64,000 nt of DNA from Candidatus Colwellbacteria bacterium CG10_big_fil_rev_8_21_14_0_10_41_28 (lineage in GTDB: Bacteria; Patescibacteriota; Minisyncoccia; UBA6257; Colwellbacteraceae). The stretch spans positions 6,634 to 70,633 of the forward strand of contig PFAG01000014.1 in assembly GCA_002773755.1 (NCBI GenBank). The letters are read 5' to 3'. The position numbers and the translations under genes are program-made. Of this stretch, positions 2,044 to 49,167 are shown one piece after another; positions within the stretch are counted from its first letter, which is position 1; the number at the start of each line of letters is the position of its first letter. Below the pieces are notes generated by a model, which worked only from the letters and a program-made list of their open reading frames with translations, was not told where the DNA came from and did no database searches.

Positions 2044-2839
2044 TCTATTTGCTTGGAATCAGATACTCTATCCAGAGAATACAGATAACTTGAGGATTCA
2101 CATACTTGATGTGGGACAAGGGGATAGTCAGCTGATAGAGCTTCCTGGAGGAGTTCAAATATTAAGTGATGCCGGTCCGGGAAAAGAAGTTCTATTTGAG
2201 CTAGATAAAATTATTCCTCCGACAGATAGGTATATTGACCTACTCTTCATTTCACATCCTCAGGTAGACCATTTTGGAGGATTTACAGACGTTATAGATT
2301 CATATGATATCGGTCTAATAGTCTATTCAGGCATTGAGGGGAATAGTGACGCTTGGCAAGAATTTTCAGACAAGGTTGCGCAAAAAGGAATTCCTGTTGC
2401 GCACCTTAGTGCTCGGGATAAGATTCAATACAAAGATTCGCGTATAGACATCCTTTCCCCTGAAGACGAGCCGTATGGTGGGTTGAATGATAACTCGTTA
2501 GTCTTCCTCTTGGATTCAGAAGGCGCTAAAGCACTTTTTACAGGAGACATCGGTTTTGATGTTGAAAATAGACTTATCGAGAATGATCTGGATATAGATA
2601 TCCTTAAAGTCGCTCATCACGGATCAAGATACTCTAGTGGGTTAGAGTTTCTGAGAAAGGTCACCCCAAGGATATCTTTGATTGGAGTTGGGGATAATAA
2701 TTTTGGTCACCCTCACGGGAATACTCTCGGCAGATTAGTCTCAGTCGGCTCAGAGATATATAGAACAGATATAAATGGTCTCATATCCCTAGACATAGAT
2801 GACGGTATGGTTAAGATCGAAACAGAGAAAATTGAGTAA
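2000..2839 (+). CDS. comEC: ComEC C-terminal metallo-beta-lactamase domain encoded as separate overlapping ORF
   Basis: N-terminal TM then MBL motifs (HILDVGQGDS..HPQVDHFGG..AHHGS); overlaps upstream ORF by 44 nt in another frame. Confidence 0.65.
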   Translation: MKYSLLIFLVLFGLNLFAWNQILYPENTDNLRIHILDVGQGDSQLIELPGGVQILSDAGPGKEVLFELDKIIPPTDRYIDLLFISHPQVDHFGGFTDVIDSYDIGLIVYSGIEGNSDAWQEFSDKVAQKGIPVAHLSARDKIQYKDSRIDILSPEDEPYGGLNDNSLVFLLDSEGAKALFTGDIGFDVENRLIENDLDIDILKVAHHGSRYSSGLEFLRKVTPRISLIGVGDNNFGHPHGNTLGRLVSVGSEIYRTDINGLISLDIDDGMVKIETEKIE

Positions 2840-2873
2840 TCCCAATATTTCTCATATACTTCCTATTACATAA

Positions 2874-4268
2874 ATGAGAGTCTTAATTAAAGAGACACCC
2901 GAGCATATCGGAGAGAAAATAGAGCTAAATGGCTGGGTTGATACTAGGAGAGATCATGGCAAGCTCATTTTTATTGACCTTAGAGACAGGAGTGGGTTGG
3001 TCCAGGTTGTCTTCAACGGAAAGAACCAAGAAGCGTATAAAATAGCAGACTCCTTAAGGCCAGAGTGGGTTATTAAATTAGTTGGTGAAGTAAAAGAAAG
3101 ACCGGATGGTATGAAAAACAATGATCTCCCAACAGGTGGAGTGGAGATCTCTGTTGAGAAAATAGAGGTATTAAATGAATCCGAAACCCCTCCTTTCGAC
3201 ATCCATTCAGATGGATTGGATATCAATGAAGCCCAAAGATTAAAGTATCGATACCTAGATCTCAGAAGGCCAAGATTACAAAGAAACATAAAGTTAAGGT
3301 CTGAGCTTATCCAAAAAGCTAGAGAGATTCTTTTTGAAATGGATTTTACTGAGATAGAGACTCCGCTATTGAGTAAGTCTACTCCAGAGGGTTCTCGAGA
3401 TTTTATAGTGCCATCAAGACTATATCCAGGTAAATTCTTTGCTTTACCACAAAGCCCTCAGCAATATAAGCAACTTTTAATGACAGCTGGTTTTGAAAGA
3501 TATTTCCAGATTGCCAGAGCTATCAGAGACGAAGATTTAAGAGCAGATAGGGGGTTTGAGCATACCCAAATAGATATGGAGTTGAGCTTTGTTGACAGGG
3601 ATCAGTTTATGGCTATCGACGAAGAGCTTATGACCAGGGTTTTTGAGGGTCTTGGGTATAAGATCAAAGAAAAGCCATTCCCTGTTGTTACATACGAAGA
3701 GGCTATGGAAAAGCACGGGGCAGATAAATTCGATCTTCGAGGAGATAAGGATAAAGAGGACGGTGTATTGGCCTTTGCATGGGTTGTGGATTTCCCATTC
3801 TTCGAAAAAGATGATGGTGGTGGTTGGACCTTTACACACAACCCTTTCTCAATGCCAAAAGAAGAGTTTTTGGACGATTTCCTTAAAGGAAAGAATATTG
3901 AGAATATATTAACCACCCAATACGATCTTGTCTGCAATGGACTTGAGGTTGGTGGTGGAAGTATTAGGGCTCATAAACCAGAGATCCTTGAGTCAACCTT
4001 CAAGATTATGGGTTATGACAAAGAGACAATAGACGAGCAATTTGGATACATGCTTGAGGCTTTCAAATATGGAGCGCCTCCACATGGAGGAACGGCTCAC
4101 GGAGTTGAGCGTCTTCTAATGGCAGCAACTGGAGAAGAGTACTTGAGAGAAGTGCAGGCTTTTCCACAGTCTGGCACTGGTCAAACATCCGTAATGAATG
4201 CACCATCAGAAATTAGCAAGAAACAGTTGGAAGAATTGGGAATAGAAATTAAAAAGAAAAAGAAATAA
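2874..4268 (+). CDS. aspS: aspartate--tRNA ligase (short form, apparently lacking GAD insertion)
   Basis: N-terminal OB anticodon-binding domain, class II motifs, FALPQSPQQYKQLLM signature; 464 aa. Confidence 0.85.
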   Translation: MRVLIKETPEHIGEKIELNGWVDTRRDHGKLIFIDLRDRSGLVQVVFNGKNQEAYKIADSLRPEWVIKLVGEVKERPDGMKNNDLPTGGVEISVEKIEVLNESETPPFDIHSDGLDINEAQRLKYRYLDLRRPRLQRNIKLRSELIQKAREILFEMDFTEIETPLLSKSTPEGSRDFIVPSRLYPGKFFALPQSPQQYKQLLMTAGFERYFQIARAIRDEDLRADRGFEHTQIDMELSFVDRDQFMAIDEELMTRVFEGLGYKIKEKPFPVVTYEEAMEKHGADKFDLRGDKDKEDGVLAFAWVVDFPFFEKDDGGGWTFTHNPFSMPKEEFLDDFLKGKNIENILTTQYDLVCNGLEVGGGSIRAHKPEILESTFKIMGYDKETIDEQFGYMLEAFKYGAPPHGGTAHGVERLLMAATGEEYLREVQAFPQSGTGQTSVMNAPSEISKKQLEELGIEIKKKKK

Positions 4269-4873: not shown

Positions 4874-5124
4874 TTTCCACAATCTATTGATAGAATAAAT
4901 AAACTACTATAGATATAAAAATATGGATTTAAGAATAAATGGTCTGTTTAATTTTGTGCTCTTTACCCATCTCTTTACTAGGAGGTTAGTTTTTATCAAT
5001 AGGCAAATCTAAGAAGATAAATCCAAACTAAAGCCGACCTCCGTTCAAAGAAGAGGCCAGTTTTAGTTTGGGGAAATGTCTTCCTCAAGGCAGTACATAT
5101 ACAACCGATAGGGAGGTGAATAAC

Positions 5125-5373
5125 TTGGCGGTCAGAGTCAAAATTAAAAAAGATGGTGTAATGGTTCCCTGTCCAGTAAACGGACAGAAGATGATTCCCT
5201 TCGATAAGAGATGGTCTTCTGGACCAGTCACCATGATCATTATTCAGGGGAAGAAGGGCCGTCTTACGCTCCGAGTGGAACACACCAACACAGGCACCCT
5301 TATGTGTTCTGAAAAAGTACAGATCAACGAAACATACATAATCGGTCTCTGGGCCATCAATAAGAGCAGTTAG
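5125..5373 (+). CDS. hypothetical small protein (GC-rich island, start uncertain TTG/ATG)
   Basis: GGGAGGTG 6 nt before TTG at 5125; stop TAG overlaps SD of next ORF (coupling); no homology recognised. Confidence 0.35.
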   Translation: MAVRVKIKKDGVMVPCPVNGQKMIPFDKRWSSGPVTMIIIQGKKGRLTLRVEHTNTGTLMCSEKVQINETYIIGLWAINKSS

Positions 5374-5383
5374 GAGGGGCAAC

Positions 5384-5653
5384 ATGAGTATCGATGAAAG
5401 GAGTAGTCGAGAGCAGCAACGGTTGTTTCTGCTCGCAACCCACTACCAAAATAGGTATGGATCAGCAGAAATCGCAAAGGCAATCAGAGCCGAACCGGGT
5501 AGCGAAGAATTCACCCATTTCATGCAGCAAGAATTGGGAGTTATCGCCCCAAGAGTGACGAAGGCGGATACTCTCGAGGTTCAGAGACAACTTCGCGAGT
5601 GGAATAATTTTGGTCAGAGATCATTTGAGAAAAAAGAAAAAGAAAGGGAGTGA
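5384..5653 (+). CDS. hypothetical protein, 89 aa
   Basis: Strong SD GGAGGGG 6 nt upstream of ATG; helical hydrophilic product; followed by terminator. Confidence 0.5.
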   Translation: MSIDERSSREQQRLFLLATHYQNRYGSAEIAKAIRAEPGSEEFTHFMQQELGVIAPRVTKADTLEVQRQLREWNNFGQRSFEKKEKERE

Positions 5654-37491: not shown

Positions 37492-38056
37492 CTTTAAAGA
37501 CTCAGGAAATAGAAATAGAGATCTCTGTTTTTTTGATCTCGAAGCAACAGGCTTAAGTGCTTATTCTGAGATATTAGAAATCGGAGCTATTAGAATAGAA
37601 ACAGACAGCCTTAATATTATGGAAGAGTTTTCTACTAAAACCCTACCTGAGAGGATTGAGACAGCTGATCCAGAAGCACTCGAAGTAGTTGGCTATGACG
37701 AAAAGGTTTGGAAAAAAGAAGCTATTCCAATTAAAGAAGCTTTGGAAAAATTCTTGGTATTCGCAGAAGACTGTGTTCTAGTGGCTCACAACCTTCCATT
37801 CGATTGGATGTGGCTCCAAAGGTCTCTTGAAGATAATGGACTTAATCCCACCTTCTTCTATCACGGGTTAGATACAATTTCCCTAGCATGGCTAAAGACT
37901 CAGCAGGATAAGATCAAAACTGGTTTGAGTCTAAAAAATCTTTCAAGACAGTTTGATATAGATATGGGTACCCATCACAATGCCCTAGAGGATGCTAAAA
38001 CGGCATACAATATTTTTGTTAAACTAATAGAGACAGATGAAGAAGCTGATAATTAA
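37484..38056 (+). CDS. DEDDh 3'-5' exonuclease (DnaQ/epsilon-like)
   Basis: FFDLEATGL (Exo I), HNLPFD, HNALEDA (Exo III). Confidence 0.7.
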   Translation: MYNFKDSGNRNRDLCFFDLEATGLSAYSEILEIGAIRIETDSLNIMEEFSTKTLPERIETADPEALEVVGYDEKVWKKEAIPIKEALEKFLVFAEDCVLVAHNLPFDWMWLQRSLEDNGLNPTFFYHGLDTISLAWLKTQQDKIKTGLSLKNLSRQFDIDMGTHHNALEDAKTAYNIFVKLIETDEEADN

Positions 38057-38444
38057 TACAGATGGAGGTTCCAGAGGAAACCCTGGTCCAGCAGCACTTG
38101 GCGCTGTAGTGGGGGATAAGGAATATTTTCAGAAGCTTGGGAACACAACTAATAATATTGCAGAATATTCTGCCGTAATTTTCGCTCTCAAAAAAGCTAA
38201 ACAGTTGATCGGTAAAGATAAGTGTAAAGAAACTGAAATAGATCTAAGAACTGATAGTGAGCTTTTGTGTAAACAACTTAATGCAGAGTATAAGATAAGA
38301 GACGAAGATCTTATTCCACTATTTATAGAAGTCTGGAACTTAAGACAAGACTTTGGAAAAGTTAATTTCATCCACGTTAGAAGAGAGAACAACAAAGAAG
38401 CTGATAGGTTAGTTAACAGAGCTCTAGACGATTTAGGTATATAA
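38037..38444 (+). CDS. rnhA: ribonuclease HI
   Basis: TDGGSRGNPGPAA..NN.AEY.A.. RNase H fold motifs. Confidence 0.8.
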   Translation: MKKLIINTDGGSRGNPGPAALGAVVGDKEYFQKLGNTTNNIAEYSAVIFALKKAKQLIGKDKCKETEIDLRTDSELLCKQLNAEYKIRDEDLIPLFIEVWNLRQDFGKVNFIHVRRENNKEADRLVNRALDDLGI

Positions 38445-38484
38445 AAGTTAAGAGTCCCCACAGCGATTTCTTGCTGTGGGGACT
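38441..38484 (-). terminator. hairpin AGTCCCCACAGC-GATTTCTT-GCTGTGGGGACT downstream of minus-strand small ORF
   Basis: 12-bp perfect stem; on minus strand followed by CTTAACTTTTAT. Confidence 0.45.
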
Positions 38485-38520
38485 CAGAATACAAGGAGAG
38501 ACGAACTCTCCGGCTTGAGG

Positions 38521-38652
38521 TTCAGGACTTTCTGATAACTCGCAGTGTGCGAGTGTTCCGATCTCGCTGGCACATGTACGCGAGCATCCACCCGATGCCA
38601 ATGAGGCACAGGACGGTTAGAACGATGACGTTGACGAGGCCGGGATCAATCA
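38521..38652 (-). CDS. 43-aa small membrane peptide (MIDPGLVNVIVLTVLCLIGIGWMLAYMCQRDRNTRTLRVIRKS)
   Basis: GGGAGG 6 nt upstream of ATG; single TM helix plus Arg-rich tail; below the 60-aa ORF-track cutoff; GC-rich island. Confidence 0.4.
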
Positions 38653-38852
38653 TGATCTACCTCCCTCTGAATCATTCCTGGTGACTGCCAGGTCGAGCCC
38701 ATTGTCTCGGTTGAGACGAGCTTTTCTACGCACCAAATTTGTTGATATGCAGGAAAGCTCATCTCAAATACTGAACCTCTATGGAGTCAAAGAACTTACT
38801 AGAAATAGTGCAACATTCCTGAGTAGATGTCAAAAATAGAGGCTAATTCTAT

Positions 38853-38880
38853 TTACATAAAAAGCCCGTTGTGGTATAAA
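38853..38880 (+). promoter_or_regulatory. rnpB promoter TTTACA-16-TGgTATAAA
   Basis: Near-consensus -35/-10 with extended TG, ~8 nt before predicted RNA 5' end. Confidence 0.5.
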
Positions 38881-38883
38881 TGG

Positions 38884-39290
38884 GGTGAGGTAATTCAGGC
38901 AATAGCCTTCTTTTTTTACCCGATATTGCTCTGTAACGATTGATCTTTACCTAAAGGGTAATAATAAAAGAGGGAGGAAAGTCCGGACACCTACTTGGTT
39001 TTCCAGGTTAAAAAGGTAGCGGGTAATACCCGTCGTGCGAAAGCATAGGGGTGCGAGCAGAGACGCTGCAATATCGAGAGATACGCAGGAGCCCGATCCC
39101 AACGTAGACGGCTCAACTCAGTTATAGGGATAAAAGACTGAGGTGAAACGGCTAAATCCCTACCCAGGTGCAAGGCCGAGCTCCGACATTCGGAGAGTGC
39201 CGCTAGAACTATTGAGCAATCATTAGTCCAGATAGATTATTGCCACCTTCTTCGGAAGGGACAGAATCCGGCTTATGAATTGCCTCCAAA
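38884..39290 (+). ncRNA. rnpB: RNase P RNA (bacterial type A), ends approximate
   Basis: Universal P4 motifs GAGGAAAGTCCGG.. and ..ACAGAATCCGGCTTAT; GNRA-type elements; GC-rich relative to surroundings. Confidence 0.85.
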
Positions 39291-48436: not shown

Positions 48437-48718
48437 ATGATGAAATTCTTATGGGTTTTAGTTGGATCGCTAATGCTCATCGTCATGGGCCTATATCTCA
48501 TGCCCTCAAAAACATCCGCTCCAGTAACTCCATATATGGACTTTGATTTTGGAAGTAAGATTGTATATACAACCGATCTCCAAACACCAAAAGAAGCTCT
48601 TATAGAACATTGCGACTTGAGAGGAGGAGTATTTAATGAGTGTGGCAGTATATGTGAGCCGGATGTATTTACTTGCGCCTCAGTATGCGCCTATACATGC
48701 GAGGGAATAGGGGGTTGA
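48437..48718 (+). CDS. small secreted/membrane-anchored Cys-rich protein (93 aa, 6 Cys in last 40 aa)
   Basis: N-terminal hydrophobic segment, C-terminal CxxxC-rich region; stop codon TGA lies inside the -35 of repeat copy 2. Confidence 0.45.
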   Translation: MMKFLWVLVGSLMLIVMGLYLMPSKTSAPVTPYMDFDFGSKIVYTTDLQTPKEALIEHCDLRGGVFNECGSICEPDVFTCASVCAYTCEGIGG

Positions 48719-48822
48719 CATATATATAATAATTGCTATAATATACTCGTTCATTAAAGACTCCGGTTTTTGATGGACATATGAAGAAATCGCCTCCGGG
48801 CGATTTTTTCACGTCTATAGAT
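48715..48822 (+). repeat. 108-bp module copy 2 (promoter + small RNA + terminator)
   Basis: Same architecture as 46953..47060; differences confined to promoter spacer, TSS region and one stem position (C->U keeps G-U pair). Confidence 0.75.
48749..48810 (+). ncRNA. candidate small RNA (copy 2)
   Basis: As copy 1. Confidence 0.45.
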
Positions 48823-48849
48823 TTATAAAACACATAGCCAAACGTGATT

Positions 48850-48885
48850 CAGCCCTGCTAATAGATTTCTCTAGAAGCAGGGCTG
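48850..48885. other. 10-bp perfect hairpin CAGCCCTGCT..AGCAGGGCTG with GATTTCT in loop, 24 nt downstream of minus-strand small ORF
   Basis: Inverted repeat seen directly; loop shares GATTTCT with hairpin at 38453..38484. Confidence 0.4.
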
Positions 48886-48911
48886 TTAGGTTGATGGCTC
48901 ATTCTCTTTGG

Positions 48912-49022
48912 TCACCTGCTACTGATCCTCTCGTAGAGGTATGCGATGGCAACTACTGCCAAGAGCAGAGTCAGCCCAGTCGCATACGAGGCCGGTGGTC
49001 TGGTCGCCAGAGTGAAGAACAT
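48912..49022 (-). CDS. 36-aa small membrane peptide (MFFTLATRPPASYATGLTLLLAVVAIAYLYERISSR)
   Basis: GGAGGAG 4-6 nt upstream of ATG; TM helix + charged tail; antisense to a weaker plus-strand ORF from the track. Confidence 0.35.
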   Translation of the reverse strand: MFFTLATRPPASYATGLTLLLAVVAIAYLYERISSR

Positions 49023-49167
49023 CAGACTCCTCCGATTGTACTGGACATGGGGCTTCCTACTCCCCATCTTAATTTGAAAATACAATTAATTAATACGTTA
49101 GTCAAAAAGAAAAAGTGGATGATATAATTTTCATATGGATGAAGTAGATTTTAAGAATAAGAAATAG

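Follow-up and report, generated by a model that had tools for sequence, protein, structure and literature searches.

Phage 'morons' are autonomous units of promoter, gene and terminator that sit between other genes and often deviate in composition. Small single-pass regulators of membrane complexes, e.g., FXYD/phospholemman or AcrZ, KdpF and MgtS, consist of little more than a transmembrane (TM) helix and a basic tail. Membrane-associated type I toxins are hydrophobic peptides of less than about 60 amino acids (aa) with a predicted alpha-helical TM domain and cationic C-terminal residues (PMC8309996). Here, we describe a locus that resembles each of these in part. It lies within a stretch of 64,000 nucleotides (nt) from Candidatus Colwellbacteria bacterium CG10_big_fil_rev_8_21_14_0_10_41_28 (contig PFAG01000014.1), hereafter called the window, to which all positions refer. 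The element in question is a small open reading frame (sORF) for a 43-aa peptide, which is located on the minus strand of a GC-rich insert between the RNase H family gene rnhA and the RNase P RNA gene rnpB.

Like a moron, the insert combines a promoter-like site, a Shine-Dalgarno (SD) sequence and a terminator of its own in a compact unit, with GC content and codon usage that are off those of the host, and it sits between otherwise adjacent genes at a place where relatives have nothing or other cargo. Unlike a moron, it is found between chromosomal housekeeping genes and not in a prophage, and no similarity to phages or plasmids was detected. With the small single-pass regulators the peptide shares its size and a TM helix followed by a basic tail, and its best sub-threshold profile and PDB matches are FXYD-like peptides and BcsF; however, these matches (E 0.05-0.2) are far below the curated cut-offs, no partner gene lies nearby and the peptide is not conserved in relatives. 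With type I toxins of the membrane-associated kind (Fst/Ldr, Hok, TisB, PepA1/SprA1, BsrG/TxpA) it has in common a length below 60 aa, one hydrophobic helix, a cationic C-terminal tail, an intergenic place, structured flanks of the mRNA and a neighbour that is transcribed convergently. It differs from them in lacking a toxin-family match, in being present in one copy in the window, in that no antitoxin RNA was identified, and in its host, a bacterium of the Candidate Phyla Radiation (CPR), for which we found no type I system reported. We somewhat favour the explanation that the insert was acquired horizontally as a self-contained small gene, which encodes an orphan peptide with one membrane pass and occupies a variable junction of rnhA and rnpB.

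The small open reading frame and its predicted peptide

The sORF (Table 1) encodes the peptide MIDPGLVNVIVLTVLCLIGIGWMLAYMCQRDRNTRTLRVIRKS, and an in-frame TAG two codons upstream of the ATG fixes its start, so that no longer ORF is possible. The sequence-only reading of this DNA had placed a 43-aa minus-strand ORF at 38652..38521, which is one base off the true position (38653..38522), and had rightly described its GGGAGG-N6-ATG start, a single TM helix with an Arg-rich tail, a GC-rich insert and the flanking genes rnhA and rnpB. Following the N-terminus MIDPG, the peptide is hydrophobic from residue 6 to 27 with a Kyte-Doolittle maximum of 2.52 (19-residue window), and its 16 C-terminal residues, rich in Arg and Lys, carry a net charge of +5. 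An AlphaFold2 (AF2) model of the single sequence, calculated without an alignment, consists of one continuous helix from residue 4 to 42 with a predicted local distance difference test (pLDDT) score of 88. The positive-inside rule is used to orient membrane helices, and by this rule the peptide is predicted to adopt an N-out/C-in topology.

The coding signal of the sORF exceeds chance. When the region 38486-38780 was shuffled 20,000 times, an ORF of at least 35 aa starting with ATG occurred in 52% of the shuffles, one that also contained a 19-residue Kyte-Doolittle window of at least 2.3 in 0.045%, and the same TM-grade ORF together with a 5-mer SD in none (0/20,000). The GC content at the first, second and third codon positions (GC1/GC2/GC3) is 0.52/0.39-0.41/0.70, with GC3 rising to 0.80-0.85 in the interior of the sORF, while the flanks show no such periodicity; a permutation test for the period-3 signal gave p = 0.016. 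The sORF has the look of a sequence that codes, or until recently coded, for a single-pass membrane peptide. A gene call in a different frame is on record for this region from the Joint Genome Institute (JGI) pipeline, a 93-aa gene on the minus strand (38484-38762; 601-879 in L002 and 818-1096 in L003) without a Pfam hit, which runs through an in-frame TGA (38648-38646). An alternative genetic code was rejected, as the host genes are intact under translation table 11 and their lengths match those of their homologs. In view of these intact genes, the 93-aa call probably arose as an artefact, with a metagenomic gene caller using a TGA-sense code.

Judged by all searches made, the peptide is an ORFan without known relatives. 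A word-indexed search of 5.8 billion proteins returned no candidate, and an exhaustive HMMER search of 1.84 billion representatives gave only two hits, both compositional, to long multi-TM proteins with 7-8 matched stretches each. Exact look-ups did not find the peptide on record, and back-translated pattern scans of viral and metagenome contigs gave no peptide match. Against phages and plasmids, tblastn yielded no hits or hits with E = 4, and blastn of the insert only chance AT-rich matches. In a comparison set of 91 Parcubacteria loci, tblastn, blastn and nhmmer recovered nothing beyond the own species; a marginal hit in L053 was rejected as compositional, since it lies inside an 88-aa two-TM ORF at a different position. 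An exact scan of metagenome and viral contigs for the terminator hairpin gave zero hits.

Searches of Pfam, PHROGs, PADLOC, NCBIfam and PDB returned only sub-threshold matches to peptides with a TM helix and a basic tail, namely BcsF (E = 0.05-0.07), FXYD/phospholemman (Pfam E = 0.12, PDB E = 0.18) and a pair of PHROGs families without known function (best E = 0.018). A further hit well below its cut-off was AftA_N (within E = 0.05-0.12). Such matches would be in line with a harmless, horizontally acquired small membrane protein that binds and tunes a host membrane complex in the manner of AcrZ, KdpF, MgtS or FXYD/phospholemman, as would the single TM helix with its basic juxtamembrane tail. 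Small membrane proteins are also common and under-annotated (PMC12648545). However, the FXYD and BcsF matches are compositional and miss the family thresholds by far, the neighbours rnhA and rnpB provide neither an adjacent partner gene nor an operon, and a conserved subunit is out of the question for a peptide that none of the relatives has. This explanation is considered unlikely.

The species-specific insertion between rnhA and rnpB

The spacer between rnhA and rnpB measures 442 nt in this species, compared to 37-102 nt in eight related species (L007, L009-L012, L086, L089 and L090). The difference corresponds to an insertion of roughly 400 bp that is specific to the species. The RNase H protein encoded next to it is identical to one from Candidatus Colwellbacteria bacterium CG10_big_fil_rev (Parcubacteria/CPR), and the next relatives show at most 78% identity. 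Over 38450-38720 the GC content is 0.51-0.58 vs. about 0.40 for the window average. The strong SD of the sORF is likewise atypical for the host genome: of 63 long host ORFs, no more than 8 are preceded within 20 nt by a match to so much as an SD 4-mer, and A-rich, SD-less leaders stand before the ribosomal-protein genes. TGA serves as stop codon in only 6 of the 63, and host GC3 is 0.32-0.37 vs. 0.70 in the sORF. As SD, stop codon and GC3 all differ from those of host genes, the sORF looks as if it was imported from a GC-richer, SD-using donor.

The same site is occupied by unrelated cargo in two other relatives. In L008, a gene for a 408-aa MFS-type transporter lies between rnhA and rnpB (2301-3527), the GC content of which is near the average of that locus (0.46 vs. 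0.48). In L091 (region 420-1290), a Colwellbacteria-like contig, the site holds a minus-strand 183-aa ORF with 59% GC in the same orientation as the sORF. This ORF starts with GGAGG-N6-ATG, has its own minus-strand terminator adjoining the rnhA stop codon and a promoter (TTGACA-17-TATATA) positioned back-to-back with the rnpB promoter, and its product is an ORFan with itself as the sole database match. A relationship of the insert to the L091 ORF and an origin as a remnant of the L008 transporter gene were both rejected, as there is no similarity to either. From these sequence comparisons, the rnhA-rnpB junction appears to be a hot spot where foreign genes, self-contained and minus-oriented, have been inserted time and again.

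The locus was found in identical copies in independently assembled contigs (Logan, two JGI samples, one ENA sample), indicating that the insertion is not an assembly artefact. A single-nucleotide polymorphism, the only one among the sampled copies, occurs in L004 at 38758 within the leader hairpin and outside the ORF. The ENA contig (L005) matches the window only from 37996 on; its positions 1-388 hold a different minus-strand gene upstream of rnhA and no exonuclease gene, which represents either a strain rearrangement or a chimeric assembly. A repeated mobile element, i.e., a miniature inverted-repeat transposable element, a repetitive extragenic palindrome or an insertion sequence (IS) derivative, is not indicated by a second copy anywhere in the window or the 91 loci, and no clear flanking duplication was seen around the insert. 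By inspection, an integron attC site was rejected for the long hairpin, as the GTT/AAC boxes are at its outer and not its inner ends and no integrase is nearby. An IS200/IS605-type element was rejected as well, the two end hairpins being unlike each other.

Among the relatives, L007 ranks first in RNase H identity (80% over a 61-residue fragment). Its RNase P RNA (226-855) is about 630 nt long and scores only 46 bits against RF00010, which suggests that this rnpB holds large lineage-specific insertions.

Flanking hairpins, the putative transcript and the type I toxin question

Downstream of the sORF, a perfect hairpin is followed on the minus strand by the tail UUAACUUUUAUAUA (38451-38438), whereas on the plus strand no U-run lies 3' of the stem. 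It ranks first among the terminator-like sites in 30-50 kb of the window, and canonical intrinsic terminators are used elsewhere in the host genome. The hairpin had been noted before as a perfect 12-bp stem at 38453..38484 with a minus-strand U-run; strand and U-rich tail agree with our analysis, but the stem comprises 13 bp (38452-38485). A second, smaller hairpin also has a U-rich tail, UUGUAUUCUG, on the minus strand only. Upstream of the sORF, the long imperfect hairpin of the putative 5' untranslated region (UTR) gains stability on the minus strand, as two mismatches turn into G-U pairs there, and the putative leader also holds a small CGAG/CUCG hairpin. A 9-bp long-range pairing would close the mRNA around the sORF; it is not significant by itself, as about 0.2 such pairings are estimated to occur by chance in the region. 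An inverted repeat of 14 nt (86%; 38517-38530 and 38766-38779) lies inside the GC-rich core. The best candidate promoter of the sORF is divergent from the rnpB promoter, which by inspection comprises TTTACA (38852-38857), a spacer of 17 nt and TGG-TATAAA (38872-38880).

Taken as a whole, the region is far more strongly folded than its shuffled versions, and this holds for both strands (z = -8.2 minus, -6.7 plus). The excess resides in the 5' leader (z = -3.8 minus, -2.2 plus) and the 3' region (z = -6.4), while folding of the sORF body is ordinary (z = -1.3). This pattern, with the excess in the flanks, is that of an mRNA with structured UTRs and not of one large structured RNA. No Rfam family matched the region even at E <= 10 apart from chance-level microRNA-type hits on the hairpins (E >= 1.6), a search of the whole window at E <= 1 returned nothing in 38445-38886, and ARAGORN found neither a tmRNA nor a tRNA here.

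The strong folding on both strands would also be compatible with an untranslated ORF, in which case the region might be a minus-strand small RNA, a decaying, inert foreign relic, or a structured 3' UTR or insulator by which rnhA read-through is kept from entering rnpB. In addition, the host barely uses SD sequences, the homolog searches gave no conservation evidence for the ORF, and the site gathers unrelated cargo in relatives like a neutral dumping ground. However, the structure excess lies outside the ORF and no Rfam match was obtained, none of the shuffles produced a TM-grade ORF with an SD, and the periodicity in GC3 is limited to the ORF. Promoter-like site, SD, ORF and two terminators make up a complete, compact cassette, downstream of which there are no decayed coding remnants. 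An insulator of rnhA should moreover have plus-strand U-tracts, yet both hairpins have minus-strand ones. An untranslated ORF is rated as improbable, at about the level given above to a harmless membrane protein.

For the favoured explanation, a horizontally acquired small gene, the following scheme is proposed. Like a phage moron, the cassette would have inserted between rnhA and rnpB, on the minus strand. From TTGACA-17-CACTAT, transcription would begin near 38798 and give an RNA of about 355 nt, with a structured 5' UTR of some 145 nt and with its 3' end at the two minus-oriented hairpin terminators abutting the rnhA stop codon. Translation from GGGAGG-N6-ATG would then yield the 43-aa peptide, predicted to span the membrane once with its N-terminus outside and the Arg/Lys-rich tail inside.

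Several observations weigh against this scheme. The candidate promoter matches the consensus at 9 of 12 positions, the -35 box being perfect and the -10 box weak, and was not flagged by a stricter scan. No gene caller on record has called the 43-aa ORF, according to exact look-ups, and the period-3 signal is modest for 44 codons. If the host makes little use of SD sequences, the SD of the sORF may reflect its origin more than its current translation. Finally, the sampled copies are all clonal and yield no selection signal, and with no homolog in any of the sequence collections searched, selection gains no support from conservation or from the ratio of nonsynonymous to synonymous substitutions (dN/dS). 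Taking both sides together, we consider it reasonably likely that the sORF is a real, expressed gene.

The sequence-only reading had assigned the locus to type I toxin-like or small regulatory membrane proteins. With respect to toxins, the shape of the peptide (43 aa, hydrophobic helix, cationic tail) agrees with this assignment, but neither an antitoxin promoter above chance level, nor a match to a toxin family, nor a second copy was found. The type I label is based on peptide shape, which many harmless small membrane proteins share. In a bona fide type I toxin-antitoxin module, a membrane-depolarising toxin would be silenced by the folding of its own mRNA, through 5'-3' closure and a partly paired SD, and by an antisense RNA. 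The latter might stem from read-through of rnhA, in whose path no terminator with a U-tract lies before 38702-38719, or be a short RNA from a weak plus-strand promoter at 38625-38653.

Some properties of the locus fit such a module: the UTRs are highly structured, the 9-bp pairing spans the ORF, the cassette is foreign and intergenic, and the sORF is convergent with rnhA. As neither of the rnhA-proximal hairpins has a plus-strand U-tract, read-through from rnhA could give an antisense RNA of about 280 nt across the whole sORF, and the plus-strand terminator-like hairpin past the SD is a candidate end for rnhA read-through or for a short antisense RNA over sORF and SD. However, the sole plus-strand promoter-like site upstream of that hairpin, ATGACG-17-AATCAT (38625-38653), is weak (8/12) and at chance level, and no plus-strand promoter passes a standard promoter scan. 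The SD and AUG pair with codons 4-6 in the minimum-free-energy fold, but this local fold is no more stable than shuffled sequence (z = -0.15). None of the toxin families Hok/Gef, Ldr, Fst, TisB, Ibs and others in Pfam, NCBIfam and PADLOC matched at E <= 10, and the peptide occurs once in the 64-kb window. A search of a full-text library also found no paper linking 'type I toxin' with 'Candidate Phyla Radiation', and hence no precedent. A genuine type I module is thus regarded as distinctly unlikely.

Concerning function, we lean towards a membrane-active, selfish or toxin-like accessory peptide over a housekeeping subunit, because the gene is foreign, solitary and without a partner gene, has structured UTRs and is convergent with rnhA transcription. 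This is the weakest step of the argument, and even if the gene is real, a toxin-like peptide is possible but doubtful.

Table 1. Features of the rnhA-rnpB junction and of other intervals in the window
Feature	Position	Strand	Details
sORF, 43 aa + TGA stop	38522..38653	minus	start ATG 38653-38651, stop TGA 38524-38522
SD GGGAGG	38660..38665	minus	6 nt 5' of sORF ATG
Intrinsic terminator, minus-oriented	38438..38485	minus	13-bp perfect stem 38452-38464 / 38473-38485, 8-nt loop
Second, smaller hairpin GGAGAG-UUCGU-CUCUCC (6 bp)	38495..38511	minus	10 nt 3' of stop codon
Small hairpin CCUGG-CAGUCA-CCAGG	38677..38692	minus	immediately 5' of SD
Long imperfect hairpin, putative 5' UTR	38711..38767	minus	24 bp on minus vs. 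21 bp on plus
9-bp long-range pairing, 5' arm GAGGUUCAG	38771..38779	minus	3' arm CUGAACCUC, 38526-38518, overlaps stop codon
Best candidate sORF promoter, TTGACA (38833-38828), 17 nt, CACTAT (38810-38805)	38805..38833	minus	consensus match only
Terminator-like hairpin UUGUCUC-GGUU-GAGACGA, then GCUUUUCUAC	38702..38719	plus	just past SD
Species-specific insertion, ~400 bp	38445..38851	unstranded	rnhA stop to rnpB promoter; GC-rich core 38450-38780
RNase H family gene (rnhA)	38037-38444	plus	Pfam PF00075/PF13456 (RNase_H/RVT_3)
RNase P RNA (rnpB)	38887-39290	plus	Rfam RF00010, 120.6 bits
Second membrane-peptide ORF, 36 aa, MFFTLATRPPASYATGLTLLLAVVAIAYLYERISSR	48912-49022 (flanks 48835-49105)	minus	CGGAGGAG-N5-ATG, TGA stop
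Sigma-70 consensus promoter TTGACA-16-TATAAT + TG extension, 12/12	48715-48742	plus	directly after a gene's stop codon
64-nt unit of two 13-bp hairpins, both with UCCG loops	within 48715-48812	plus	second hairpin ends in U-run; z = -8.3
56-aa acidic ORF, GGGAGG-N5-TTG	524-694	plus	GC3 0.65; in GC-rich gap 449-768 (0.52-0.55)
Two adjacent orphan ORFs with strong SDs, GC-richer stretch	5068-5653	plus	82/101 aa (GGGAGGTGAATAAC-TTG), 89 aa (AGGAGGGGCAAC-ATG)

Sibling small ORFs in the window and their implications

Further small ORFs of a similar kind are present in the window (Table 1). The 36-aa ORF for a second membrane peptide shares the design of the 43-aa sORF, with a GC3 of 0.68 and a local GC content of 0.55-0.56 in flanks of 26-40% GC. 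It is accompanied by a promoter match (TTGACT-17-TATTTT) and a 10-bp downstream hairpin, and is not on record as a gene. The 64-nt two-hairpin unit, which lies on the opposite strand and converges with the 36-aa ORF, is a candidate small RNA. An action of this candidate in trans on the 43-aa sORF was rejected, as its complementarity to either sORF mRNA extends over only 8-11 nt, including G-U pairs. The 56-aa acidic ORF is followed by a strong terminator hairpin of 18 bp with a U-run in a region that folds with z = -5.4; it has no Pfam hit, and its protein is a singleton cluster in the protein collection. The adjacent 82/101-aa and 89-aa ORFs also lack Pfam hits and belong to clusters of only four members and one member, respectively. 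The presence of these siblings raises the likelihood that the SD-led, GC-rich small ORFs of this genome are real imported genes and no accidents.

A broader reading would be that this SD-poor CPR genome acquired from a GC-richer donor several cassettes that are autonomous, SD-led and rich in GC3, and that at least two of them (38522-38653 and 48912-49022) are type I-toxin-like and held in check by convergent or antisense transcription. The first would then be controlled by rnhA read-through and the second by the adjacent 64-nt two-hairpin RNA with its perfect promoter. We consider this broader reading quite improbable. If true, toxin modules under RNA control would be described for the first time in the CPR, and one way in which minimal symbiont genomes come by new small genes would become visible.

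Annotation routinely overlooks small membrane proteins, and the genomes of CPR/Patescibacteria are minimal and poorly understood. As an orphan from a single species, the peptide is at present a well-defined candidate and not a discovery. If the gene is real, it shows that such a minimal genome takes up tiny foreign genes and retains them, at intergenic hot spots, as whole transcription units with translation signals unlike those of the host. If, in addition, the peptide is toxic and controlled by RNA, type I toxin-antitoxin biology would extend to the CPR.

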